From UHGV virus genome UHGV-0213309: a DNA stretch of 38,072 nt; one strand, 5' to 3'. Positions within the stretch are counted from its first letter, which is position 1. Each line of letters starts with the position of its first letter. The notes beneath the pieces are model-generated. The model saw only the letters and a program-made list of their open reading frames with translations. It was not told the DNA's origin and made no database searches. This DNA comes from a virus. Positions 1 to 38,040 of this stretch are shown one piece after another. A program made the translations under genes and the position numbers.

Positions 1-888
1 ATGGCAAGAGAGGTAGATTTAGGATCAATTATCGGACCACAGGGTGAAACAGGACCGACTGGTAAATCAGCGTATCAGGTATGGCTTGCACAGCCTGGAA
101 ACGCAGGAAAAACAGAAGCACAGTATATCGCTTCCCTAAAAGGCGAAAAGGGAGCAACCGGAGCGACAGGCCCACAGGGACCAACCGGAGCAACCGGAGC
201 GACTGGACCACAGGGAGAAAAAGGAGCAACTGGAGCGACAGGTCCACAGGGACCAACCGGGGCAAAAGGAGATAAGGGAGATCCGTTCGCAATCGCAAAA
301 ACGTTCGCCTCCGTGTCAGCAATGAATTCTGGATTCTCCTCAGATGGAGTGAAAGAAGGACAGTTCGTCATGATCGACACAGGAAATGTCAATGATGCCG
401 ATAATGCGAAACTCTATATAAAAGGAAGGACAGCATATACCTATATTACAGATCTTTCAGGTGCTACTGGAATGACAGGCCCACAGGGACAAAAAGGAGA
501 TACAGGGGCTAAGGGAGCAACCGGAGACAAGGGAGCAACTGGAACACGTGGCAGCAGATGGGACGCAGGAACAGCAATCACGGGAACAAGTACAACAGCA
601 ACAGTATTTCCAGGTTCAGGAATTACAGATACATTAGTGAATGATATGTATTTGAATACATCTACAGGGTGTACATACAGATGTACTGTAAGTGGAGCAG
701 CGTCAGCAGCTAAGTGGGTATATGCAGGAAGTCTGAAAGGAAACACGGGAGCAAAAGGAGATAAGGGAGCAACAGGAGCAACAGGCCCACAGGGAGCAAC
801 CGGAGCGACAGGAGCAACCGGTAAGGATGGACAGACTCCGACATTCAAGATCAGCAATGGACACTTGATCGCAGTATACGAAAGCTAG
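1..888 (+). CDS. Collagen-like (Gly-X-Y) repeat tail fibre protein; paralog of 901..1917 and 37352..37999
   Basis: Long [16 protein letters not shown] Gly-X-Y runs. Internal module (aa ~180-250) homologous to N-terminus of next ORF. C-terminal ...[16 protein letters not shown] motif shared with ORF 37352..37999. RBS AAGGAAGGA lies at the very end of the window (circular junction). Confidence 0.75.
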
Positions 889-900
889 GAGGAATATACA

Positions 901-1917
901 ATGGTAGCAAGACAGATTGATCTAGGACAGGTGGTTGGACCTACAGGACCAACCGGAACCAGAGGAAGCCGCTGGACACAGGGAACGGCAATCACGGGAA
1001 CAAGCACAACGGCAACAGTATTTTCCAGTTCAGGAATCACAGATGCCATTGTGAACGACAATTACCTGAACACAGCAACTGGAAATACATATAGATGTAC
1101 TGTAGGAGGAGCAGCGTCAGCCGCTAAGTGGGTATATACAGGAAATCTGAAAGGTCCACAGGGGGCAAAAGGAGCAACTGGCTCACAAGGACCAACTGGA
1201 GCAACTGGGCCAACCGGAGCAACCGGACCGAAAGGGGACACGGGACCGACAGGACCGACAGGTCCTCAGGGTCCAACAGGAAAAGTAGATGCTAATACAC
1301 AGGTAGCGTTCACAAAGGCATCAACGAGGGAGAATATAGCAAGCAATGAGAAGATGTCAACTATTCTCGGAAAGATCGCAAAGTACTTCGCAGATCTGGG
1401 AACGTCCGCATTCAGAGCAGTGGCGAATAATTTGACAACTTCAGCAGCCGGCAGTTCTGTGTTGGATGCTTATCAGGGAAAAGTACTGGATGGAAAGAAA
1501 CTGAACACTGCAAATGTGATTAATAATCTGCTTACGACAGAGGCCGGGTATGCGCTTGATGCACGACAGGGGAAGAAGATTGAGGATCAGATTACTGAAT
1601 TAAATGGCAAATCAATTATAGACATAAGTAAAAATTACTGTAAATTTGCAAATGGTTTGATTATTCAATGGGGAACAGGAACGCTTCCAAGTTCATCGTC
1701 AGGTGGGCAAGGGTATGCAACGATAACATTTCCTATACCATTTTCAGATAAATCTTACACTGCTATTGCTTGCGCAAAATATCCTGGACCAGCAACCCCA
1801 GCGTTTATGGTATCTACAGATATCGCGAGTACCTCAAAAATGTATATATATGGACGAAGCGGCAGTTTAACACAAATAACAGGTGCTGAATGTAGATGGA
1901 TTGCTATAGGTTATTAA
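901..1917 (+). CDS. Tail fibre / receptor-binding protein with collagen-like stalk and AT-rich C-terminal tip domain
   Basis: RBS GCTAGGAGGAATATACA-ATG. N-terminal module plus Gly-X-Y repeats. C-terminal ~200 aa globular region with the ALDA.QGK motif common in Gram-positive phage fibres. GC drops sharply after ~1600. Confidence 0.8.
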
Positions 1918-1954: not shown

Positions 1955-2638
1955 ATGAACATACTTTTTCTTAATCAAGAAGAACCAGTGATGGGAACTG
2001 TAACAGTTCAAGATCTCCATCACGTGAAAATCAAGGGTGCATCACAGAATCTGTCAGGTTTTCATCTTGTGACAGATGATGGACAGGCTTATGGAAAATA
2101 TGAAGCATATACCACATTGTACAGAACAATAGAAGACGGATACATTCTGTCAGATGATGGAAGTGTATATGTAGAGCCGGATCCAGAGCCAGAACCGGAG
2201 CCATATGTTCCAACATTAGAAGAGATCCAGGAAGCGAAAGTAAGTGAGATGAATGCAGCGCAGCAGGCTGTGATAGCGGAAGGTGTGGATGTGGTGCTTA
2301 CAGATGGAAGTACGGAGCATTTCACATTAACGGAGAGAGATCAGACAAGCCTTGTAGGATTGCAGGGACAAGTGGCAGCAGGAGAGCAGAACATTCCGTG
2401 GCATACTTCAGATGAAGAGGAACATTGCAAGTTCTATAGCAATGCGGATATGGCTAAAATTACTGCAACGGCAATGGAATATGTAACATGGCACGTTACA
2501 TATTTCAGAGATTTGAGAATCTATATCAGAGCATTGACAGAAATCGAAGAAGTAGAAAAGGTAACTTATGGAATGACTATTCCGGAAGAATATCAATCAG
2601 AGCCATTGAAAACAATGATTGCGGCTCAAAACGTATGA
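1955..2638 (+). CDS. Tail-fibre-associated protein (acidic PEPEPEP linker; C-terminal region resembles DUF4376-type phage proteins)
   Basis: RBS GAAAGGAAAACAA-ATG. Position directly after fibre genes. Conserved LTDGSTEHFTLTERDQ...IPWHT...CKFYS motif block. Confidence 0.55.
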   Translation: MNILFLNQEEPVMGTVTVQDLHHVKIKGASQNLSGFHLVTDDGQAYGKYEAYTTLYRTIEDGYILSDDGSVYVEPDPEPEPEPYVPTLEEIQEAKVSEMNAAQQAVIAEGVDVVLTDGSTEHFTLTERDQTSLVGLQGQVAAGEQNIPWHTSDEEEHCKFYSNADMAKITATAMEYVTWHVTYFRDLRIYIRALTEIEEVEKVTYGMTIPEEYQSEPLKTMIAAQNV

Positions 2639-4896: not shown

Positions 4897-4931
4897 GTAA
4901 CAAAGAAGAGCACATGAAAAGGAGAAAGACC

Positions 4932-5315
4932 ATGACAGTAGAGGAAATCAGAAATTTAATCAGTGAAGCAGAATATGATTACATTGGAATCAGAGCAGAT
5001 AGCAGAGATTATCAGATTGGTGAAGTGATGGATAACTCACATCAGCTCTTCCAGGATCCTCAGTATACAGACTTTGAATGTACAGAGTTGTTATATCCAT
5101 ACATTTCAGAAGGTCCTTATACCGGATTCTATGATGGCGGAGAACTTGATGGCACATGTGCACTTGAAGTATCTGAGAGCAATATCGAAGAAATGATTGA
5201 AAGAGTAACGTCATATGGAAACAAATATTATTTGATTGGTGGAAACTCAATGGAATACGGAAATGACGATGACGAGATTATTATTAATGATGCAGAAGTG
5301 ATTGCAAGAATATAG
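4932..5315 (+). CDS. Hypothetical protein (first gene of low-GC accessory cassette)
   Basis: RBS AAAAGGAGAAAGACC-ATG. Acidic protein MTVEEIRNLISEAEYDYIG... with no recognisable family. Confidence 0.5.
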   Translation: MTVEEIRNLISEAEYDYIGIRADSRDYQIGEVMDNSHQLFQDPQYTDFECTELLYPYISEGPYTGFYDGGELDGTCALEVSESNIEEMIERVTSYGNKYYLIGGNSMEYGNDDDEIIINDAEVIARI

Positions 5316-5327
5316 AGGAGAAAAATA

Positions 5328-6158
5328 ATGAATGGAAATATATGGAAAGAAGTTCTGAAGCAACATGAAATGCTAGGTATTGAAAATATAATTCCTGTAT
5401 CTCATATAAGAATAAGACCAGATATAGGAATATTATTAGACGATAATGGCAATTTTGTAGGTGCAACTATAATCAAAAACGAAAGATGCTCAATCCCATG
5501 TACTATAGACTCAGAAAGTAGAACTAATGGAATATCGCCACATCCGATACACGATAATATGAGTTATATTTGCGGAGAATATCCAAATTATGAAAAACGA
5601 CACGATACATATATGAAACAATTGCAAAGTTATACAGAAAATGTAGATGATAATCTTGCAAAGAGTGTATATAGATATTTGAAAAAGAAAACAATCCGGC
5701 TTGATATCAAAAATTTGACAAAGCAAATAGAAAACATATCAGAAGAAAAATTGATGGTCGTATTCGCAACGTTAAGTCATCGAGACACGATAAGCAAAAA
5801 ATGGACAGAATACTATACATCTACGCTTGATAGAAATGGTATATGTGGAATAACAGGAGAAAAGGATCATATCCCGGATAAATATCCAAAAGGAATAAGA
5901 AATCCGTCTGATCAAGCAAAATTATTTATCGCCAATCCAAAAAAAATGGATTCAATGCCTACGAATGTGCCTGGTTATATAGCATCTCAGAAAATTATAC
6001 ATACGCTGCAATTTATGATATACGAGGGGAATTCTTGGGCATACCAAATACTAAAAGACAATGTAGATACAATCCCGGAAACATGGAAGGAATGGGTAGA
6101 AGAATATCAAGCTAAAAATGGAATACAAAAAAGGGAGGATGGGGAGAAAAATGAATAG
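5328..6158 (+). CDS. Hypothetical protein, very AT-rich (second gene of accessory cassette)
   Basis: RBS GAGGAGAAAAATA-ATG. 276 aa. GC visibly far below the phage average. Overlaps the next gene by 8 nt (translational coupling). Confidence 0.6.
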   Translation: MNGNIWKEVLKQHEMLGIENIIPVSHIRIRPDIGILLDDNGNFVGATIIKNERCSIPCTIDSESRTNGISPHPIHDNMSYICGEYPNYEKRHDTYMKQLQSYTENVDDNLAKSVYRYLKKKTIRLDIKNLTKQIENISEEKLMVVFATLSHRDTISKKWTEYYTSTLDRNGICGITGEKDHIPDKYPKGIRNPSDQAKLFIANPKKMDSMPTNVPGYIASQKIIHTLQFMIYEGNSWAYQILKDNVDTIPETWKEWVEEYQAKNGIQKREDGEKNE

Positions 6159-6786
6159 AACAGAAAAGGCCTGTATTAAATGTGGCAAGCTCTTTCACGG
6201 AGGTTCTGATAAATTTTATTGCGATGATTGTGCGAAAGCTTTAAAAAGTAATGTTATGCGTACAAGGACATGTAAAATGTGCGGAGTTGAATTCCTTGGT
6301 GGTCCGCGTGCATCCTATTGTCCAGAATGTCGCAAAATTCGGCAAAAAGAAGCAAGCGCAAGAGCAAGGAAAAGAGGTGGAGCTGTTCGGCCAATTGGAA
6401 GCATGGATAAATGCGAATGGTGCGGATCTGAATATATTGTTAATTCCGGAAGGCAAAAATATTGCTCGGATGAGTGTCAAAGAGAGGCGGTGCTAGAGTG
6501 GCAACGGAAACACAAAGAAGGATATAACAAGATATCTGGGCAAGATATTAAAAAAGCGCAACGCCGAAAAGAGAAAAAGAAAATCTGTGTATATTGCGGA
6601 CGTGTATTCTCTAGTTCTACACCAACTAATTTGTGCTCTGAATATTGTCGAAAGAAAAATAGGCAGATCAAAGAATATCAAGCAGAAATAAAACGCGGAA
6701 AGAATGTAAATATAGGCAGGTTACTGAACGAGCAGAAAGAATACCAATCAAAAGTTGAAACTAATGAAATAGAAAAAACAATATAA
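6151..6786 (+). CDS. Protein with four tandem CxxCG-x(10-12)-YCxxC zinc-ribbon modules separated by basic linkers
   Basis: Strong RBS AAGGGAGGATGGGGAG. Repeats CIKCGKLF..YCDDC, CKMCGVEF..YCPEC, CEWCGSEY..YCSDEC and CVYCGRVF..LCSEYC. Arg/Lys-rich spacers. Confidence 0.65.
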   Translation: MNRTEKACIKCGKLFHGGSDKFYCDDCAKALKSNVMRTRTCKMCGVEFLGGPRASYCPECRKIRQKEASARARKRGGAVRPIGSMDKCEWCGSEYIVNSGRQKYCSDECQREAVLEWQRKHKEGYNKISGQDIKKAQRRKEKKKICVYCGRVFSSSTPTNLCSEYCRKKNRQIKEYQAEIKRGKNVNIGRLLNEQKEYQSKVETNEIEKTI

Positions 6787-7235: not shown

Positions 7236-8786
7236 TTATTTGCGCGGGATTCTGGGCTTTATGGTCAATTCAAAGTTAGGCTCATTCAGATGACCGCGCT
7301 TATTTTTCGTTAATTTCTTGTATTCTATAGATTCTATGAGTAATTTCAACAACCGGTTGCGTTCCGGAATAGATAAATCCCAATAACAGGAAAGCAGATC
7401 TTCACAAGCCGGCAGGAACTGTTCTATATTGGCTTCTCTTTGGCGTTCCTTGTCAAGTTCGAGTTTCAGCTGGGCAACGTTTGATTCAGCTTCAGAAATT
7501 CGGTTTTGTAAACTGTCAGATCGCTCAAGAAAGACTTCTGTCGAGTAGACACCTTGTTCAAGCAGATCATACATGGTTCCCTTTTGCCGTAGAAGTTGAT
7601 CGAGTGTCTGTTGAGCTGATTCCAAAAGAACTTCTTTTTCCGGAATAAGACTCTTACTTGGCATCTGACCACTCAGACGATATCCTTCAACCCAGTCAGA
7701 AAGCGCGTTATAAACTTCTCGCTCAACAAGATCCAAAGGGCTGCCAATGGTAGGACAATCATATGTACTGCACAACATCAGATCATAAGGCACACGACTG
7801 GCGGTTCCGGAAGGCGGCCGGCGAATCATTTTCTTTTTGCACTCACTACAGACAATGATTCCGGCAAGTGGATTTTTGATAATGTTAGAACCGGCAGGTT
7901 TTGGGGATCCACAGCCAAGATAACTCTGAGCTTCTGCAAATACATCGTGATCGATCAAGCGCGGATGCCGGCCGGAAACAATGGTATAGTCACTGGTTCT
8001 CGGACGCGTGGTTGTGAGAACACCGTTTTCAACTGTCCTGACCACTTTTCGTTCGCCGATCTTAACGCATTGATCATACACAACATTAGAGAGAATTCCA
8101 CGGACGGTACTCTCACTCCAAAGTTTGGAATTACGCGGCTTTGTACCGTAACTGTTTAAAGTGCGAGTGATCGACCGGATACCGACACGTTCCGGACCGG
8201 TAAACATAGAAAAGATAAGCCGCACAACAGGAGCCTCGTTTTCATCAAAAGCAAGAGTCCATCCTTTCTCTTTTTCAAGTTTCACTCTCCGGAAACCGTA
8301 TGGCGCGGAGTTGTATGGCCACTTTCCCTCAGAGATAGCGGCATAACGTCCATTCTGCATCCTGCGCTTGATCGTCTTATATTCACGACGACTCATGAAT
8401 AATCCAAACTCAAAATACTCTTCATCGAATTCATTGGCAGGATCATAGGTTTTGGAAGGCGTGATGATTAGTGTGTTGGAATACTGAAATGCTCTCTGTA
8501 CAACTCCCTGATCTATTGTATCACCACGAGCAAGACGTTCTACTTCCATAACGAGCACACCGTCCCACAGGTTTTGTTCTACTTCGTGAAGTAACTGCTG
8601 CATAACAGGACGCGCAGCTATGGTTTCTCCGGACACAACTTCTCGATAAATATTGCTGATAATAAGGTTATTTTTCTTAGCAAGAGAAAGAAGTGCACGT
8701 TCGTGTCTGGCAAGAGTTTCCCCTTCACCATGCTGCTCGGCTTCAAGATCCTTTCTTGATTTCCTCAAATAAATACAATACGACAT
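7236..8786 (-). CDS. Large serine recombinase (integrase)
   Basis: RBS GGAGGTGATATC-ATG on minus strand. N-terminal resolvase-type catalytic domain (YLRKSRKD...). Recombinase domain, Cys-rich zinc ribbon and C-terminal coiled coil. ~516 aa. Confidence 0.9.
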   Translation of the reverse strand: MSYCIYLRKSRKDLEAEQHGEGETLARHERALLSLAKKNNLIISNIYREVVSGETIAARPVMQQLLHEVEQNLWDGVLVMEVERLARGDTIDQGVVQRAFQYSNTLIITPSKTYDPANEFDEEYFEFGLFMSRREYKTIKRRMQNGRYAAISEGKWPYNSAPYGFRRVKLEKEKGWTLAFDENEAPVVRLIFSMFTGPERVGIRSITRTLNSYGTKPRNSKLWSESTVRGILSNVVYDQCVKIGERKVVRTVENGVLTTTRPRTSDYTIVSGRHPRLIDHDVFAEAQSYLGCGSPKPAGSNIIKNPLAGIIVCSECKKKMIRRPPSGTASRVPYDLMLCSTYDCPTIGSPLDLVEREVYNALSDWVEGYRLSGQMPSKSLIPEKEVLLESAQQTLDQLLRQKGTMYDLLEQGVYSTEVFLERSDSLQNRISEAESNVAQLKLELDKERQREANIEQFLPACEDLLSCYWDLSIPERNRLLKLLIESIEYKKLTKNKRGHLNEPNFELTIKPRIPRK

Positions 8787-8939
8787 GATATCACCTCCGT
8801 ATATATTATGTAAAAAAGTACAAAAATAACAGCCATACACAGAACGTAAGTTCTGATTGTGCGACTGCACCGAAGATGATACAATATTCTTTGGTAAGAC
8901 AGTATCTCTTCGGAGTTACTAAAGCACATTGGCGTGTGC

Positions 8940-8985: not shown

Positions 8986-9600
8986 AGATATAAAACCATC
9001 ATCTTTTATCTGGAATATCTTTTTGTGTAGTGTTATCGTTGTCTTGAAACTTCTGGCCATCAAGAAGAACAGAGCTCCGAATATAATAAAGAAAGCACCG
9101 ATTCCGACAGACGTTGAGAGTCCGGCAAGTCCGAAAGCCAGTAAGACAACTGACATGATCATGGCGATTACACGGCACAATGAGAATGTAGAAATTTTTG
9201 TGCGTTTTCCATTTGCTTTTATGATTGAATCTCTGTCCTGATCAAGTACACATCCAGTTTGAACAAGCGAAATGTATTTTTTCTTCTCACTTGATGTCAG
9301 CACTTTCTCAAGCTTAGATGGAATCCGTACCTCAGGGATTTCTGCGGCAGATCCACTGAAAGAACTGTTGGAAGATGAACGCAATCCATTTCCACCGATC
9401 CCACGATATACATCACCGACTCCAAAGGTTGTCTTGTTATAGACTTTATTGTATGCTGCCTTCTTCGGATCCTTTATCCATCCGACACCTTTCTGTCCGT
9501 ATCCAGGAGACACGGATTTCTTAACAGCTCTTTTTACTTTTCCAGTTGTCTGAGCCTTAACACTTTTCTTCAAGCTCGGCGTTCTCATTCCTACTTTCAT
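8983..9600 (-). CDS. Lysine-rich protein with two C-terminal transmembrane helices
   Basis: RBS AAGGAAAAGGTGAT then ATG (minus). Basic N-terminal half (KKSVKAQTTGKVKRAVKK...). TM segments VIAMIMSVVLLAFGLAGL and IGAFFIIFGALFFLMA. Overlaps the 3' end of the channel gene. Confidence 0.5.
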   Translation of the reverse strand: MKVGMRTPSLKKSVKAQTTGKVKRAVKKSVSPGYGQKGVGWIKDPKKAAYNKVYNKTTFGVGDVYRGIGGNGLRSSSNSSFSGSAAEIPEVRIPSKLEKVLTSSEKKKYISLVQTGCVLDQDRDSIIKANGKRTKISTFSLCRVIAMIMSVVLLAFGLAGLSTSVGIGAFFIIFGALFFLMARSFKTTITLHKKIFQIKDDGFIS

Positions 9601-10362
9601 CGTTATCACCTTTTCCTTCATGTAGGCACTGCAGAGTTTTGCAGATTGCCTGAATATCATCGTCTGACAGTTCATCAAAGTTGTTCAGCTGGCTCTGTAT
9701 CGAGCTGATCAGAATATCTTTTGCGGTAGATTTTTCTTTGTCAGTTGTCTTTTGAAAGAAAACTGCTGTGATTGTGCTAGTCAGAGAACCGATTAGACCG
9801 ATTCCAACAAGCATCAGAACAGTTGCTATGATTCTTCCCGGAATTGTTGATGGTGAGATATCTCCATATCCAACAGTTGTCGCTGTAACAAAACTCCACC
9901 AAAAGCCATCTGAAAAGCTCATTCCTTCCGCATAATGGATGGATATTCCACCGATTGCAATACAGATCAGCGTTGCTCCGACCATATACTTAAATCCATT
10001 CAAGTCAAAGAAGAACTTTATATGCTTGTAGAGCCTTGCAAATCGTGCGGACGCTTTTGCTAGCTTCAAGAGTTTTAGCATCTTGAATACTTTGAATACC
10101 CTGAAAACTTTGAACAAAGAGTTGAACGGAATAATTGCAATCAGATCCAGTATGTTATTCCGAAAAAACTCTTTTTTATTTTTAGCAATCAGCAATCGTA
10201 ACGCATAGTCTACAATAAATATTGTGTTGATCGCAAAGTCAATGTCGCGCTGAATTGTAGAACATCCAGTTGTCATGTCATAGATTGCAAAGTAGACAGC
10301 TACGATTGCAAGTACGCTGAAAAGGAGATCATACAGAACAGAAAGTCGTTCTTTGTGCTTCA
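9557..10362 (-). CDS. Voltage-gated K+ channel (6TM; S4 with K/R every third residue; selectivity filter TVGYGD)
   Basis: RBS AGGAGAA 9 nt before ATG (MKHKER...). S4 FKVFRVFKVFKMLKLLKLAKASARFARL. Pore helix/filter WWSFVTATTVGYGDISP. S6 GRIIATVLMLVGIGLIG. Cytoplasmic C-tail follows. Confidence 0.8.
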
Positions 10363-10520
10363 TAAAACAAATTCTCCTGATTTCATTTAATATAATAAGC
10401 ACCCCATCTCTATGCAAGAACAAATGTTCGATAAAACCATTGATTTCTAAATACAAATGTCGTATGATGAAATCAAGGAATTTCGAAGAGTGTTCTTGCT
10501 GGGAACGGAGGGACTACATA

Positions 10521-30743: not shown

Positions 30744-30892
30744 ACATCGACTGGGCAGAATACATGGTGTGTGCAAGAAAGATGGGAATGAGTGAAGATG
30801 AATTTTGGAACTCAGATCCTGTCTTTTTTAATGAATGCCTGGAAGTATTCACAGAACTAGAAAAACGGAAGGGAGGTGCTTTGATTGGCTAG
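30689..30892 (+). other. -1 frame extension (T-like segment) of tail chaperone reached via slippery AAAAAAAAAG
   Basis: Frame 2 reads RTGEEVCCSEGEEISEAIDIDWAEYMVCARKMGMSEDEFWNSDPVFFNECLEVFTELEKRKGGALIG with no stop. Confidence 0.6.
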
Positions 30893-33038
30893 TAATGACG
30901 GCTTGAAAACTGTCGGATTGACCTTAAAAGCAGATGGAGCGGTTGACTTTAGAAAATCACTGACAGATGTAAACAATGCGGTCAATGAGAACAGGTCAGC
31001 CTTTAAACTTGCAAAGTCTGAATGGGATAAAAGTACATCGTCAGCCGATAAACTGAGAGCGACGCAGGAATATCTACAGAATCAGACAGAAGCGTATACG
31101 CAGAAAGTCGATAGGCTGACAGAAATATTGAAGGCACAGGAGAACGCACAAGTACGAGATGAAGCTGCTATATCCAAAACAAGACAGCAGTTGGACAATG
31201 CGAAAGCATCTCTGAATAACTACAAGAGTGGACTTGAAGATGTAAACAAGAAGCTGGAAAGCGGTGCTGCGACACTGGAAGATTACTCCAAGAAGGTTAA
31301 GGACTTCAGCGATACCACCGGAAAGATTGGAAGTTCACTCACAAAGAATGTGACGGCTCCAGTTGCGGCAGCAGGCGCAGGCATCATGGCATCATGGGCG
31401 CAAGTCGATGAAGGAATGGACATCATCGTGCAGAAGACAGGAGCTACTGGCGATGCGCTGGAAGAAATGCAGGATTCCGCAAGAAATATCGCAAAAACCA
31501 TTCCAACAGACTTTGCGACAGCTGGTTCTGCTGTTGGAGAGGTCAACACACGATTCCATCTCACAGGACAAGAACTGGAAGACTTATCGGCAAAGTTTGT
31601 TCGGTTCGCCGAATTAAATGATACAGACGTATCTTCTTCCGTTGATAACACTCAGAAAGTTATTGAGGCATTCAATCTGACAGCTGAAGATGCTGGCGCA
31701 TTGCTCGACACAATGAACAAAGTCGGACAGGATACTGGAATCTCAATGGATACTCTATCCTCATCGATGGTGAGCAACGCAGCATCACTCAAGGAACTAG
31801 GGATGTCTGCAGCAGACGCTGCTACATTTCTCGGTCAGTGCGAGACGTCAGGAGTTGACACAAGTGCAGTTATGGCAGGACTTAAGAAAGCCCTTGTCAA
31901 TGCATCAAAAGAGGGCAAGAGCATGAAAGATGCGCTGTCAGAACTGCAAGATACGATGGTTAATGCAGGGAGTTCTTCTGAGGCTTACAATGCTGCGGTT
32001 GAGCTGTTCGGAGCGAAAGCTGGTCCAGCACTCGCAGAGTTCTGCCAAAGTGGAAAGTTAAACTTTGACGAATTAGGCGCATCGCTCAATGATAACCTCG
32101 GAAGTGTCAACGATACGTTTGAAGCTACACTGGATCCGGCTGACCAGTTTAAGTTGACACTGAACGAATTGAAAGATGCTGGATTTGAAGTTGGAAATGC
32201 ATTAGGACCAGTCCTTGCGGATTGTTTACATATTGTCACTCCGATTCTTCATGACATCATTGATGGTTGGAATTCACTGTCTCCTGGTACACAGGAAATG
32301 ATAATCAAGTGTGCGCTGTTGGTTGCAGCACTAGGACCCGTCTTCAGTATAATCAGCAAGGTTTCTGGTGGCGTGTCCACTGTGATTGATGTCACATCAA
32401 AGCTAACGCCAACCATCAGTGGGGCAAAAACAGCTTTCGCAGCATTTAACGCAATTCTTATGGCAAATCCAATCTTTTTGGTTATCGCAGCAGTTGTTGC
32501 GTTGATTGCAATTTTTGCATTGTTATATACAAAGTGCGAGTGGTTCAGAGACGGAGTCAATGCGGTGTTTACATCGATTCGTGATTTCATCAAGGGAGTA
32601 ATCGACAAAATCAAGGGATTTTTCAACTTTGAGTGGAAACTCCCCAAAATTAAACTTCCACATTTCAAAGCGAGTGGAGAATGGTCGCTTGTTCCGCCAA
32701 AAGTTCCAAAGTTTTCGGTTGACTGGTACGCAAACGGCGGTATCTTGAACAGCCCAACTATTTTCGGTATGAACGGAGATAGAGCAATGGGCGGTGGAGA
32801 AGCAGGAGCAGAGGCGGTTCTTCCAATTGACTTGCTGAAGACATACATCCGTGATGAGATGCAGTCCAACAATGCTGCGCTTGCACAGATGATTGCAGAG
32901 GCACTGTCAGAGCTGACATTTGTTATTGAAAATAACATTGCACTGGGCGATAAGAAGCTTGCAGAGATTCTTGCGGACGCGGTAATCAAGAAGATATCCT
33001 CCAGCGTGAAATGGAAGAAAGGAGCTGTGGGAGCATGA
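30885..33038 (+). CDS. Tape measure protein
   Basis: TTG start after GGGAGGTG RBS. 717 aa. Coiled-coil N-terminal half, central hydrophobic segments, C-terminal region. Confidence 0.9.
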   Translation: MASNDGLKTVGLTLKADGAVDFRKSLTDVNNAVNENRSAFKLAKSEWDKSTSSADKLRATQEYLQNQTEAYTQKVDRLTEILKAQENAQVRDEAAISKTRQQLDNAKASLNNYKSGLEDVNKKLESGAATLEDYSKKVKDFSDTTGKIGSSLTKNVTAPVAAAGAGIMASWAQVDEGMDIIVQKTGATGDALEEMQDSARNIAKTIPTDFATAGSAVGEVNTRFHLTGQELEDLSAKFVRFAELNDTDVSSSVDNTQKVIEAFNLTAEDAGALLDTMNKVGQDTGISMDTLSSSMVSNAASLKELGMSAADAATFLGQCETSGVDTSAVMAGLKKALVNASKEGKSMKDALSELQDTMVNAGSSSEAYNAAVELFGAKAGPALAEFCQSGKLNFDELGASLNDNLGSVNDTFEATLDPADQFKLTLNELKDAGFEVGNALGPVLADCLHIVTPILHDIIDGWNSLSPGTQEMIIKCALLVAALGPVFSIISKVSGGVSTVIDVTSKLTPTISGAKTAFAAFNAILMANPIFLVIAAVVALIAIFALLYTKCEWFRDGVNAVFTSIRDFIKGVIDKIKGFFNFEWKLPKIKLPHFKASGEWSLVPPKVPKFSVDWYANGGILNSPTIFGMNGDRAMGGGEAGAEAVLPIDLLKTYIRDEMQSNNAALAQMIAEALSELTFVIENNIALGDKKLAEILADAVIKKISSSVKWKKGAVGA

Positions 33039-35577: not shown

Positions 35578-36576
35578 GTGAGCTGGACGATAGGAAACAA
35601 GTATCTGACGGAATCGCAGATGCAAGGAAACGCATTGGAGGTCTATAAATATTTCGCAGGAAAAGGATGGACGTTGAATGCGATCGGTGGGATTCTTGGA
35701 AACATGGAAAAAGAGTCCAACATTAATCCTGGACTCTGGCAGAGCCTGAAAGAAGGAAACTATTCTGGTGGCTTCGGATTGGTTCAGTGGACACCGGCCA
35801 CCAACTATACGAACTGGGCAAACTCGAACGGATACGGAATTACGGATCCGGAAGGGCAGATGTATTGGATTGATGCACTGTCTGCATCAAGTGGTCAGTG
35901 GATTGCGACAAGTGCTTATTCAATGACATGGGGTGCATATAAGAACAGCAAAGAATCACCGGAATATCTCGCAAGCGCGTTTCTGAAGAACTTCGAACGA
36001 GCAGGAGTTGAGGTAGAATCCGAAAGACGGAGTGCAGCACGAAAATGGTACGACTATCTCACAAAATATGCGGATGGGAGTCAGGTTATTGAAAAGGCAG
36101 TGGAATGGGCAATATCGATTGCGAACGATAACAGTCATGGATACGATCAGGCGCACAGAGACGGACCAGATTACGATTGTTCCTCATTAATCTGCTGGGC
36201 ATACTACAATGCAGGGCTGAATACGAGGCCAGGATACACACCAGCTACAGGAGCAATGTATGATGTGTTTCTGGCAGCTGGCTTCAAGGATGTGACTTCA
36301 CAGGTCAATCTAGCCACCGGATCAGGGCTGATCCGGGGAGACGTCCTGTTAAAACCAGGAAACCATACAGAAATGTCAATTGGGAATGGCCAGCTGGTTG
36401 CTGCTTCACAGAACGAATTCGGTGGAATTACCGGAGGACAGACCGGAGATCAGACCGGAAAAGAGATTCATGTGCATGGATACTATAACTTTCCGTGGAA
36501 GTATGTGCTGAGATATCCGGGAGGCGGAGTTGCACCGGTGCAAGGGTTGTATATCGTCAGATGGATTCCTGGATAA
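35578..36576 (+). CDS. Tail-associated lysin: N-terminal phage tail-tip lysozyme-like domain plus C-terminal Cys/His (NlpC/P60- or CHAP-like) peptidase
   Basis: GTG start after AAGGGAG. GGILGNMEKESNINPGLWQS...GFGLVQWT motif. Downstream DYDCSSLICWAYY ... GNHTEMSIGNG (Cys...His). Confidence 0.75.
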   Translation: MSWTIGNKYLTESQMQGNALEVYKYFAGKGWTLNAIGGILGNMEKESNINPGLWQSLKEGNYSGGFGLVQWTPATNYTNWANSNGYGITDPEGQMYWIDALSASSGQWIATSAYSMTWGAYKNSKESPEYLASAFLKNFERAGVEVESERRSAARKWYDYLTKYADGSQVIEKAVEWAISIANDNSHGYDQAHRDGPDYDCSSLICWAYYNAGLNTRPGYTPATGAMYDVFLAAGFKDVTSQVNLATGSGLIRGDVLLKPGNHTEMSIGNGQLVAASQNEFGGITGGQTGDQTGKEIHVHGYYNFPWKYVLRYPGGGVAPVQGLYIVRWIPG

Positions 36577-36586
36577 GGAGGAGAAA

Positions 36587-37355
36587 AGTGAACTATATAG
36601 AACGAGATGTCTATGTGCTGGAGAACAGGATTAAGGAAAAGATTGATTATGTAAGAGGGACGAATGCTCTCCCAATCTATTTCCATTTCCGGGATTATGA
36701 GATTCCGGAAGGGGCAACGGCAAAAGCATTCGTGTTGAAGCCGTCAAAAAAAGCAACATATAATGTATGCCCGATCATTGAGAACACCGTGAGGGTGATC
36801 GTGAAAGATCAGACATTCGCTGAACTTGGGAAAAGCGCGCTTCAGATTGTACTCACAATGGATGAGGAGACGCTTGTTACATTCGATCAGCCGATAGAAG
36901 TACATCGGAATTTCAGTGAAGGAGATGTTCCGGAAAGCGAGAATGAAGCTGGATGGATGAACAACTTCATAAAAGGCATGGAAGAAGCTACAAAGCATGC
37001 TGAGAATGCTGCAAAGACAGCGGAAGAGATTAGTGAGACACTAACAAAAAAGCTACAAAATGGAGATTTCCGAGGAGCAACCGGAGCAACTGGTCCGCAG
37101 GGCAAACAGGGGATTCAGGGAGAACCAGGAAAAGATGGAGAAAAGGGCCAAAGGGGTGATACCGGACCAGTTGGGCCACAAGGGCCGGCAGGAAAAGATG
37201 CGAATGCAGTGATTACATCATTGAACCCGGGAGTATTTGCAATGTCGGTAGAATCAGGACATCTTATCCTGACATACGACTCATACGATACAGCCCCACC
37301 GCTGAAAATTGTGGATGGAAGATTGAAATATGTATTGGAGGAGGTGACAGCATGA
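36587..37355 (+). CDS. BppU/upper-baseplate-like protein with short collagen-like segment
   Basis: GTG start after [58 protein letters not shown] block. C-terminal ...PLKIVDGRLKYVL. Confidence 0.65.
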
Positions 37356-37999
37356 TAAGAGTATATTTCGAAGAGGGAGAAAAAGAAAAGACTGCATACG
37401 GATTGACGCAGTGGGATTATGGACAGAAACTGCAGATTCTGGGACTTAACCTGCCATCTGAACAAGAGGCTGTAGAAGTCCATTTCTCATATTGGCGCGG
37501 ATGCAGGCCGGCGAAAATTATTGAAGCAACTGTGATATGTGACAAGATTATAGCAGATATTCCAAATGATTTCTTAACGGAAGGAGAAGGTATAGATGCT
37601 TATATCTATATATCAAGTTCTGAGGAAGGAAAAACCATTGGGAGAGTAAGACTTCCGGTAATCAAGAGAAAAAAACCAATTGACTACAACGCATCAAATG
37701 AAAACCAAGTGTTAAAACAGGTATTAGAATTTCTGCAAACAAAAGCCGACAATATCACCATCACAGATGGCAATCTGCAGCTTATGTCTCAAGGCCAACC
37801 GGTAGGAGATAAGGTAAGACTGAATACATCCGGAGGAAATGAGATTGAGATCCGGAACAATGGTACAGCTCTGCAATGGAGATATACAAATCAAAATGAC
37901 TGGAATGATCTTGTTCCATTGGAAGATCTGAAAGGAAAAGATGGAAAACCACCGGAATTTGAAGTACGAGATGGACATCTGATCGCAATATATTTATAG
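37352..37999 (+). CDS. Tail fibre family protein sharing C-terminal KDGKPPEFEVRDGHLIAIYL motif with ORF 1..888
   Basis: RBS GGAGGAGGTG. ATGA overlap. C-terminus near-identical in pattern to ...[21 protein letters not shown] of the first ORF. Confidence 0.6.
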   Translation: MIRVYFEEGEKEKTAYGLTQWDYGQKLQILGLNLPSEQEAVEVHFSYWRGCRPAKIIEATVICDKIIADIPNDFLTEGEGIDAYIYISSSEEGKTIGRVRLPVIKRKKPIDYNASNENQVLKQVLEFLQTKADNITITDGNLQLMSQGQPVGDKVRLNTSGGNEIEIRNNGTALQWRYTNQNDWNDLVPLEDLKGKDGKPPEFEVRDGHLIAIYL

Positions 38000-38005
38000 G
38001 ATAGA

Positions 38006-38040
38006 AAGCACTGGCTTCGGCGGGTGCTTTTTATTATAAA
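38006..38040 (+). terminator. Rho-independent terminator (AAAGCAC-TGGCTTCGGCGG-GTGCTTT then TTTTATT)
   Basis: 7-bp stem with internal GC-UUCG-GC tetraloop stem, then a T-tract. Followed by RBS AAGGAAGGA for the ORF at base 1. Confidence 0.7.

Follow-up and report, generated by a model that had tools for sequence, protein, structure and literature searches.

The virus genome UHGV-0213309 (38,072 nt; hereafter the window, meaning the whole stretch of DNA that was analysed) is a complete temperate siphovirus-type genome with terminase, capsid, tape measure, Dit, Tal and tail lysin genes, the last of which is followed by four fibre genes named A, B, C and D here (Table 1). Our analysis suggests that the products of these genes probably form a tail-fibre apparatus made of segments, in a temperate siphovirus of Lachnospiraceae, and that a conserved peptide at the C-terminus of one protein is half of a split three-strand connector docking fibre segments head to tail. 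The peptide would form a two-strand beta-hairpin, whereas the N-terminus of the next protein, marked by a DLG motif, would supply the missing third strand and lead straight into the collagen helix of that protein. Hairpin and DLG strand would thereby rebuild, over two polypeptides, the three-strand module that adjoins collagen linkers in single-chain fibres, and it is for this reason that we read the peptide as a docking connector. The main support for this reading comes from fused versions of the two halves. No description of such a split connector was found in the literature searched; we regard it as a new variation on the modular fibre design already known and not as a novel type of system.

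The shared C-terminal motif of B and C, (T/P)PxFx(I/V)x(N/D)GHLIA(V/I)Y, had already been noticed in a first-pass annotation of the window, and comparison of the two proteins bears it out. B ends with ...KGKDGKPPEFEVRDGHLIAIYL, and the ends of B and C are 58% identical over 19 aa (pairwise E 2e-6). The same annotation proposed a weaker form of the motif at the C-terminus of A (...MSVESGHLILTYDSYDTAPPLKIVDGRLKYVLEEVTA), which does exist, as two weaker copies and not one; this double hairpin is conserved in the A family. The N-termini of C and D, described as related, indeed share the pattern M-x(2-4)-[VI]DLGx[IV][IV]GPxG. The motif is also present in homologous fibres of other phages. In an alignment of 61 homologues of B (36–52% identity to B), TPEFEIRDGHLxAIY is the best conserved part after the N-domain and always ends 1–6 aa before the stop codon, with P201 invariant and F203, E204, R206, G208, H209, L210 and Y214 at least 90% conserved. 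In AlphaFold2 models the terminal motif of both A and B is predicted to be a beta-hairpin. B also contains an internal copy, conserved in two homologue alignments, in which the predicted hairpin is completed by a third strand (strands 165–169, 173–178 and 185–189), whereas its terminal copy is a hairpin only.

Loci carrying either half were found by scanning IMG/VR for DNA encoding DGHLIA[VI]Y and, in reverse, for the N-terminal DLG motif. All 26 distinct in-frame occurrences of DGHLIA[VI]Y were C-terminal, and in each case the next gene started 3–80 nt later with M-x(2-4)-VDLGx[IV][IV]GPxG. The hairpin-ended upstream proteins belong to at least three unrelated families (B-like proteins, proteins of 391–446 aa and collagen-ended proteins). 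Conversely, a hairpin-ended gene lay immediately upstream of 37 of the 43 distinct DLG-started genes. When both scans were pooled, 57 of 68 distinct hairpin-ended genes preceded a canonical DLG gene and six a variant DLG N-terminus (63 of 68 together); in the other five cases, no further fibre gene separates the hairpin-ended gene from the lysis genes. Chains of three genes linked in this way also occur (L031), matching B, C and D in the window. Moreover, a C-type connector, with an [IVM]GP ending, directly follows every B-type gene examined, even where the downstream body is unrelated: a collagen rod in the window, tip-bearing proteins in L157 and L161.

Fibre gene sets are mosaic, with different bodies between the same boundaries, and conserved linkers are what one would expect from the classical modular theory of phage evolution. 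The boundary sequence could accordingly be a DNA-level linker or homology patch for cassette exchange, with a protein product that has no docking role. This is very improbable in our view, as the conservation lies at the amino-acid level and the motifs, which stand in different reading frames, are anything between 3 and 80 nt apart. In addition, among 68 distinct DNA versions the motif's invariant residues G, H and L are encoded by all their synonymous codons (four, two and five, respectively), which indicates selection on the peptide and not on the DNA.

The arrangement of C and D might also be explained by read-through of the TAG at 886–888, which would make them one protein with internal motifs. 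D does lie in the frame of C, 12 nt downstream, and the sole interruption is this one TAG, which sits within AGGAGG. However, in L157, L159 and L031, more distant relatives that share the motif pair, the spacing is 10–16 nt and out of frame, B and C are in different frames in the window, D is preceded by a canonical ribosome-binding site and ATG, and TAG, TGA and TAA all end other window genes. We regard read-through as extremely unlikely. An alternative genetic code with TAG recoding was likewise rejected, as all three stops are in use, the open reading frames (ORFs) are long and normal, and the frame relation of C and D is not conserved.

Both halves of the connector occur contiguously in single chains, for example as ...AVEVTDAGKLIFTLTDGST-VDLGSVMGPQGPKG, that is ...AVEVTDAGKLIFTLTDGST-VDLGSVMGPQG, as ...IDLEGGNLVFVLSDGSR-VDLGSVIGPQG and, within an ORF of more than 1400 codons, as ...YVIEDNGHLIVFNGTDSF-VDLGKIVGPQG. 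A short ORF of L083 (6306–6716, 136 aa) contains two hairpins followed by a DLG module, colinear with the last 35 residues of A plus the first 30 residues of D (41% over 66 aa against the A–D junction, with a two-residue gap at the junction). At the scale of whole proteins, P0155 is a colinear fusion of A and D, in which residues 3–234 match A (41%, E 2e-46) and residues 215–341, in the distal half of this single-chain fibre, match the shaft of D (56%, E 1e-44). In P0140, P0146, P0176, P0177 and P0194, too, a single chain unites an A-like N-domain with a shaft and a tip.

The L083 locus (4899–6716) comes from an unrelated phage type, where the 136-aa collagen protein is encoded directly after a major capsid-like gene. 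Its fused hairpin-DLG module is N-terminal and a free hairpin forms its C-terminus; the protein may be a head fibre built with the same modules.

Such a free hairpin would suit another role. In T4 fibritin, a trimeric fibre, the foldon is a short beta-hairpin that forms the very C-terminus, and collagen helices need a nucleating trimer domain. The hairpin could thus be a self-contained trimerisation or registration cap and the DLG segment an independent N-cap, the two being adjacent since consecutive genes carry both. In C and A, Gly-X-Y triplets run right up to the hairpin, the five hairpin-ended proteins that come last among the fibre genes have no DLG partner downstream, and the L083 protein ends in a free hairpin. 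Nevertheless, the best conserved hairpin is that of B, which has essentially no collagen. Tip proteins such as D lack the hairpin and the anchors lack the DLG segment, a polarity that would be expected of a chain and not of caps. Fused homologues have the hairpin immediately before the DLG strand, and P0155 puts A and D in one fibre. The foldon itself differs from the peptide in being self-sufficient at about 27 residues, taking no partner strand from another protein. We consider a cap in place of a connector rather unlikely; the two roles are not mutually exclusive, however, and as some hairpins are unpaired, the cap may be an additional role.

Many fibres need chaperones, and in the window, as in 24 of 25 relatives (the contig of L025 ends first), the next gene after the fibre set is a conserved accessory gene encoding a DUF4376 protein. 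This protein may be a fibre accessory or assembly protein, and the C-terminal peptide could be a recognition tag for it or for a similar chaperone or assembly factor. Yet D, the nearest gene product to the DUF4376 gene and the one with a globular tip, has no tag, and in the L167 and L172 prophages hairpin-ended proteins are encoded directly before the lysis genes with no DUF4376-like gene between them. A tag would also leave the paired N-terminal motif and the fused forms unexplained, and we give it very little credence. Thus, among the roles that the first-pass annotation proposed for the peptide, docking is favoured, trimerisation may coexist with it, and no support was found for chaperone recognition.

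Several points nonetheless weigh against docking. Its structural basis consists of AlphaFold2 models of monomers. The five hairpin-ended genes without a downstream partner and the free end of the L083 protein indicate that a hairpin can exist unpaired. In the window, A precedes B, which has no DLG N-terminus, so that the case for an A::D joint is drawn from relatives and from the fusion protein. As neighbours are inherited together, the co-variation of hairpin and plug subtypes is not independent evidence; many of the loci were, moreover, collected by scanning for one motif or the other. Finally, sequence similarity between the split pair and the internal unit of B is modest. What the data show directly are the folds of the anchors, the conservation and terminal placement of both peptides, their pairing over gene boundaries and the fused versions, whereas physical contact between the two halves, its stoichiometry and the partners of each segment are our inference.

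With regard to these partners, A and B would sit on the baseplate, with C a collagen-and-knob extension and D the shaft and receptor-binding tip. The likely assemblies are A::D and B::C, the hairpin of C being free or carrying another D; the double hairpin of A is the proposed socket for the N-terminus of D. Three observations favour two such fibres. In L021–L025, B and C have been deleted through the microhomology GGAT(T/G)GAC, between GGATTGAC (codon 18 of B) and GGATGGAC (codon 274 of C). At ~6001–6125 of these loci, the deletion has left an out-of-frame scar with a remnant ORF and placed A directly before D; as A and D are all that these genomes retain, B and C seem to be dispensable. The prophage of Blautia producta DSM 2950 has an A'→D' pair and a separate B'→C' pair, in which the C-like hairpin is free. 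The third is the constant position of the C-type connector after B-type genes.

The models suggest where such fibres begin. A and B look like paralogous BppU-like baseplate anchors in a FibL/FibU-like arrangement. In A, the predicted beta-sandwich (aa 1–110) is followed by a helix (122–157), a collagen run (~aa 162–204) and the two hairpins. The N-domains of A and B are modelled with a predicted local distance difference test score (pLDDT) of 85–96 (85–95 for A), and the model of B has a pLDDT of 83.6. Foldseek retrieved 6v8i_AK (E 2.6e-7), 4v96_AA (5.5e-7) and 9m8o_Q (1.1e-6) for A, with E-values ranging to 7e-5, and 9m8o_P (4e-6), 6v8i_AN (4.3e-5) and 4v96_AK (2e-4) for B. The top PDB matches of both models are thus the same anchors, namely FibL/FibU of 80alpha (6v8i), BppU of TP901-1 (4v96) and the NF5 baseplate (9m8o), and both models show an Ig-like beta-sandwich with the BppU fold followed by a helix.

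Neither A nor B matches Pfam BppU_N (PF10651), which only the distant homologue P0207 carries, joined to an A-like C-terminal module. B has 84 full-length homologues (33–50% identity) and no Pfam family at E ≤ 1, and a PDB sequence search with its profile returned nothing meaningful (best match eIF5A, E 0.49). When the A and B families were compared with hhalign, only the 14-residue hairpin was aligned (probability 0.8%), so that the kinship of the N-domains is shown by the fold searches and not by sequence alone. The synteny of both genes after the tape measure, Dit, Tal and tail lysin genes is consistent with a ring of A and B around Dit or the tail tube.

The two paralogues FibL and FibU of 80alpha are arranged as rings stacked on each other, of which one has a coiled coil and the other is collagen-like (PMC7048315). 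Similar to these, A and B are two paralogues with a BppU-like Ig N-domain and a coiled-coil or collagen-like segment, encoded after Dit and Tal, but the distal domains of FibL and FibU are in the same chain. BppU of TP901-1 resembles the proposed anchors in holding a separately encoded receptor-binding trimer, whereas it binds BppL via a globular C-terminal domain and not a terminal hairpin. The module itself recalls the '3-beta domain', which occurs in tandem with collagen-like linkers in the Tal extensions of Streptococcus thermophilus phages; it consists of three antiparallel strands beside collagen-like triple helices, and the junction module of Tuc2009 BppA is a comparable case (PMC9437275). 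The internal unit of B and the fused hairpin-VDLG forms fit this domain by description. In the published cases a single chain holds the whole domain, whereas in the proposed connector two strands lie at the end of one protein and the third at the start of the following one. The T4 long tail fibre (gp34-gp35-gp36-gp37; PMC5537660) offers a parallel in being assembled from trimeric segments that are encoded separately and connected end to end; its receptor-binding piece is the last, and gene order equals assembly order. Its folds and joints are unrelated to those described here, a monomeric hinge protein (gp35) is involved and the phage is a myovirus of Gram-negative hosts.

Further support for the identity of the fibre genes, besides the anchor folds and the position of the genes, comes from D. 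It combines phage fibre repeats with a Gp53-like tip (Pfam PF21882, 54.1 bits at residues 248–338 with a cut-off of 24.9; PF22337; Collagen), and its residues 202–338 match PDB 4mtm_A (E 2.2e-5). The first-pass annotation, which had taken these genes for fibre genes, was right in this respect. It had called all four collagen-like, which applies to A, C and D (PF01391, 30.9, 72.7 and 32.0 bits, with a Pfam cut-off of 27.2) and not to B, which has no Pfam Collagen match and only two Gly-X-Y triplets (GKD GKP). The collagen runs of C comprise 4, 16, 11 and 11 triplets, and a PDB sequence search with the knobs between them gave collagen matches only. B, C and D exist as ORFs where they had been placed. 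The span given for A, 36587..37355, is not a multiple of three in length; the frame starts with the GTG at 36588, which has GGAGG in front of it and lies 12 nt downstream of the preceding stop. The ends of the window fall between B and C, but four linear IMG/VR contigs from relatives 90–98% identical (L011, L013, L018, L020) span B, C and D without a break. The adjacency across the window ends is therefore real, and the four genes are consecutive on the circle, as had been claimed. Downstream of D, the order continues with the DUF4376 gene, holin and endolysin.

The relatives are prophages or contigs of metagenome-assembled genomes of Blautia, Lacrimispora, Hungatella, Enterocloster and other Lachnospiraceae. 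A DNA search of positions 1–1917 against 50,697 phage records produced Gly-X-Y matches only and no relatives.

Beyond the connectors, the fibre genes bear traces of recombination. It had been proposed that shuffled repeats within these genes are substrates for homologous recombination that reassorts receptor-binding modules. Self-comparison of the whole window by blastn did reveal a nucleotide repeat above background, the one long non-collagen self-match, between 532–760 in C and 946–1174 in D (81% over 233 columns, E 8e-46; in frame, offset 414 nt). The figure of ~85% quoted for 541–740 against 955–1154 was too high, the ungapped identity being 158/200 (79%). At the protein level, the identity of C and D within this block is 73% over 107 aa. 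No exact match longer than 18 nt exists between the two genes, and this longest one lies in collagen codons; the window's own repeat is thus too diverged to be a good recombination substrate.

In the relatives, the collagen runs differ by whole triplets (4, 5, 9 or 10 in the first run of C and 8, 10, 11 or 14 in the last), and one or two whole knobs have been lost in frame in L003 (108 aa) and L012 (147 aa). The size of C ranges from 108 to 313 aa in close relatives, and both connectors are always kept. The knob copies of C and D are 76–85% identical within genomes of the window lineage. In L159/L160, where the A-B-C-D synteny is kept (A identity 58%), they share a 191-nt exact tract, and in L005 a 60-nt exact tract and an A/V polymorphism. 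These tracts point to concerted evolution of the knobs by gene conversion between the intragenomic repeats, and the earlier idea was in this sense right in kind. No C–D fusion through the ~230-nt repeat was found in the relatives, where the events seen are collagen–collagen deletions and conversion tracts, none of which moves a receptor-binding module; the proposed reassortment of such modules by the repeats thus did not hold. Gly-X-Y coding repeats and the duplicated knob would act as in-frame recombination substrates, through which fibre length changes and knob copies are homogenised, whereas the end connectors stay constant.

In the host-specificity genes of S. thermophilus phages, where collagen-like repeats flank variable regions, Gly-X-Y coding repeats are in-frame recombination substrates as well. 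The window relatives show the same kind of length changes and deletions, but the events change rod length or knob content here, and not the receptor-binding domain. Collagen-like repeats in these host-specificity genes are a topic mentioned in PMC5601072.

Tips are exchanged in the relatives by another route, a shufflon acting at a 19-nt site inside D, and not by the repeats. For this site (core TTAAATGGCAAAT), located at the boundary between shaft and tip, 23 of 25 relatives contain inverted partners on the downstream side of D. Every site in the relatives is followed in frame by LNGK and a full tip cassette of 105–143 aa; the exceptions are L011 and L015, with a degenerate remnant of 44 aa, and L025, where the end of the contig cuts the cassette short at 20 aa. 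Two to four copies of the site are present in shufflon relatives: four in L021, L023 and L024, and three before the contig end in L025. In these same four genomes, a gene of the Phage_integrase family is surrounded by sites, and in some relatives the tyrosine recombinase gene is placed between two invertible segments; a protein of this family is also encoded next to D in L159/L160. There are at least six tip types among the relatives. The same cassettes occur in either orientation: the window, L001 and L021 express the CRWIAIGY tip, which L022 and L024 carry as a silent, inverted copy, while the WLDVSYDL tip shows the reverse pattern.

The Rin shufflon of Bifidobacterium prophages uses a tyrosine recombinase and an 11-bp site, TTCCCTAACCC (PMC6109161). 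As with Rin, Mu Gin, P1 Cin and p15B Min, a constant 5' part of a fibre or receptor-binding protein gene is joined to alternative 3' tips by inversion at short repeats (PMC6109161), and the presence of a tyrosine recombinase in L021, L023–L025 and L159/L160 is a further similarity with Rin. The tip system of the relatives is a tyrosine-recombinase shufflon of Rin type, although the site core and the host clade differ. The window itself differs from Rin in having one site and one tip, similar to L001 and L003. It contains no inverted partner site, with only 38 nt between D and the next gene, and a tblastn search with the L024 recombinase found no tyrosine recombinase in it; the only recombinase found was a large serine recombinase (7236..8870, minus strand). 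With a single site and no tyrosine recombinase, the tip of the window is fixed. The locus is an ordinary modular fibre locus in kind, and the window an ordinary, 'frozen' member of its lineage. Taken as a whole, what the first-pass annotation had observed is partly confirmed and its interpretation partly supported.

Some other features of the window deserve mention. The RNA hairpin between B and C, with its upstream A-tract and downstream U-tract, looks like an intrinsic terminator inside the fibre cluster. It was found by folding and was not called in a scan for promoter and terminator consensus sequences; the B–C gap is only 3–17 nt in more distant relatives. Between the endolysin and the integrase region, a 276-aa ORF (5328–6158, plus strand) is similar to the N-terminal portion of Cas8c/Csd1 (Pfam PF09709, E 2.4e-22, profile positions 14–223 of 559), with NCBIfam TIGR01863 far below its cut-off; its product is a putative phage-borne Cas8c-like fragment. 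A protein of 298 aa whose domains are of the potassium-channel type (Ion_trans_2, Ion_trans) is encoded at 9557–10456 (minus strand), not far from the large serine recombinase.

Table 1. Features of the fibre region and neighbouring genes in the window (UHGV-0213309); strands and structural elements of A and B are taken from AlphaFold2 models.
Feature	Position	Strand	Description
Tape measure gene	30885–33038
Tail lysin gene	35578–36576		Directly before the fibre genes
Gene A	36588..37355	+	255 aa; BppU-like N-terminal beta-sandwich, long helix, collagen run, two beta-hairpins
Double beta-hairpin, C-terminus of A	37236..37331	+	MSVESGHLILTY ... LKIVDGRLKYVL; predicted strands 217–222/225–230 and 239–242/245–248
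Gene B	37352..37999	+	215 aa; BppU-like beta-sandwich (aa 1–101), helix (116–129), beta-hairpin repeats; no collagen domain
Complete three-strand unit inside B	37838..37948	+	EIEIRNNGTALQWRY...WNDLV...LKGKDG; contiguous version of the connector
Terminal hairpin of B	37949..37993	+	PPEFEVRDGHLIAIY; ends one residue before the stop; without third strand; predicted strands 202–206/209–213
Hairpin between B and C	38000..38035	+	Flanking A and U tracts; minimum free energy -21 kcal/mol, z -7.1 against shuffles
Gene C	1..888	+	295 aa; N-terminal connector, four collagen runs with three non-collagen modules between them, C-terminal hairpin
N-terminal connector of C	1..48	+	Proposed plug for the hairpin of B
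Repeat copy 1	532..760	+	GSRW...KWVY knob and flanking collagen triplets
Terminal hairpin of C	835..879	+	Two residues before the stop; kept in every length variant of C, including the 108-aa and 147-aa forms
Gene D	901..1917	+	338 aa; connector, knob, collagen, alpha/beta shaft with phage fibre repeats, Gp53-like tip
N-terminal connector of D	901..957	+	Paired with C-type hairpins in all close relatives; directly after A in L021–L025
Repeat copy 2	946..1174	+	blastn partner of 532..760
Lone 19-nt site	1594..1612	+	ACTGAATTAAATGGCAAAT; shaft/tip boundary (...TELNGK); only exact copy in the window
Tip cassette of D	1606..1914	+	Receptor-binding; ends ...CRWIAIGY; fixed in the expressed orientation
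DUF4376 protein gene	1955..2638	+	Pfam PF14301; phrog_1348, labelled 'tail fiber protein'

It is tempting to generalize further, although this extension is only tentative. The hairpin/DLG pair could be a general, portable plug and socket in many phages of Lachnospiraceae and other Bacillota, allowing combinatorial assembly with subtype-specific pairs and C-like proteins as optional extenders, so that segments of co-resident prophages might be mixed at the protein level without DNA recombination. If the docking connector is real, it would provide a sequence rule for uncultured gut Bacillota phages, namely that a protein ending in ...GHLIAxY precedes an M..DLG..GP.G protein on the fibre. It would also offer a short joint (about 15 + 15 residues) for host-range engineering, at which whole distal segments could be swapped in phages of Blautia and other Lachnospiraceae. 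The comparison of relatives separates three layers of fibre variation in this one lineage: in-frame collagen recombination, which changes length, gene conversion of the knobs, and site-specific inversion of the tip, which changes the receptor.

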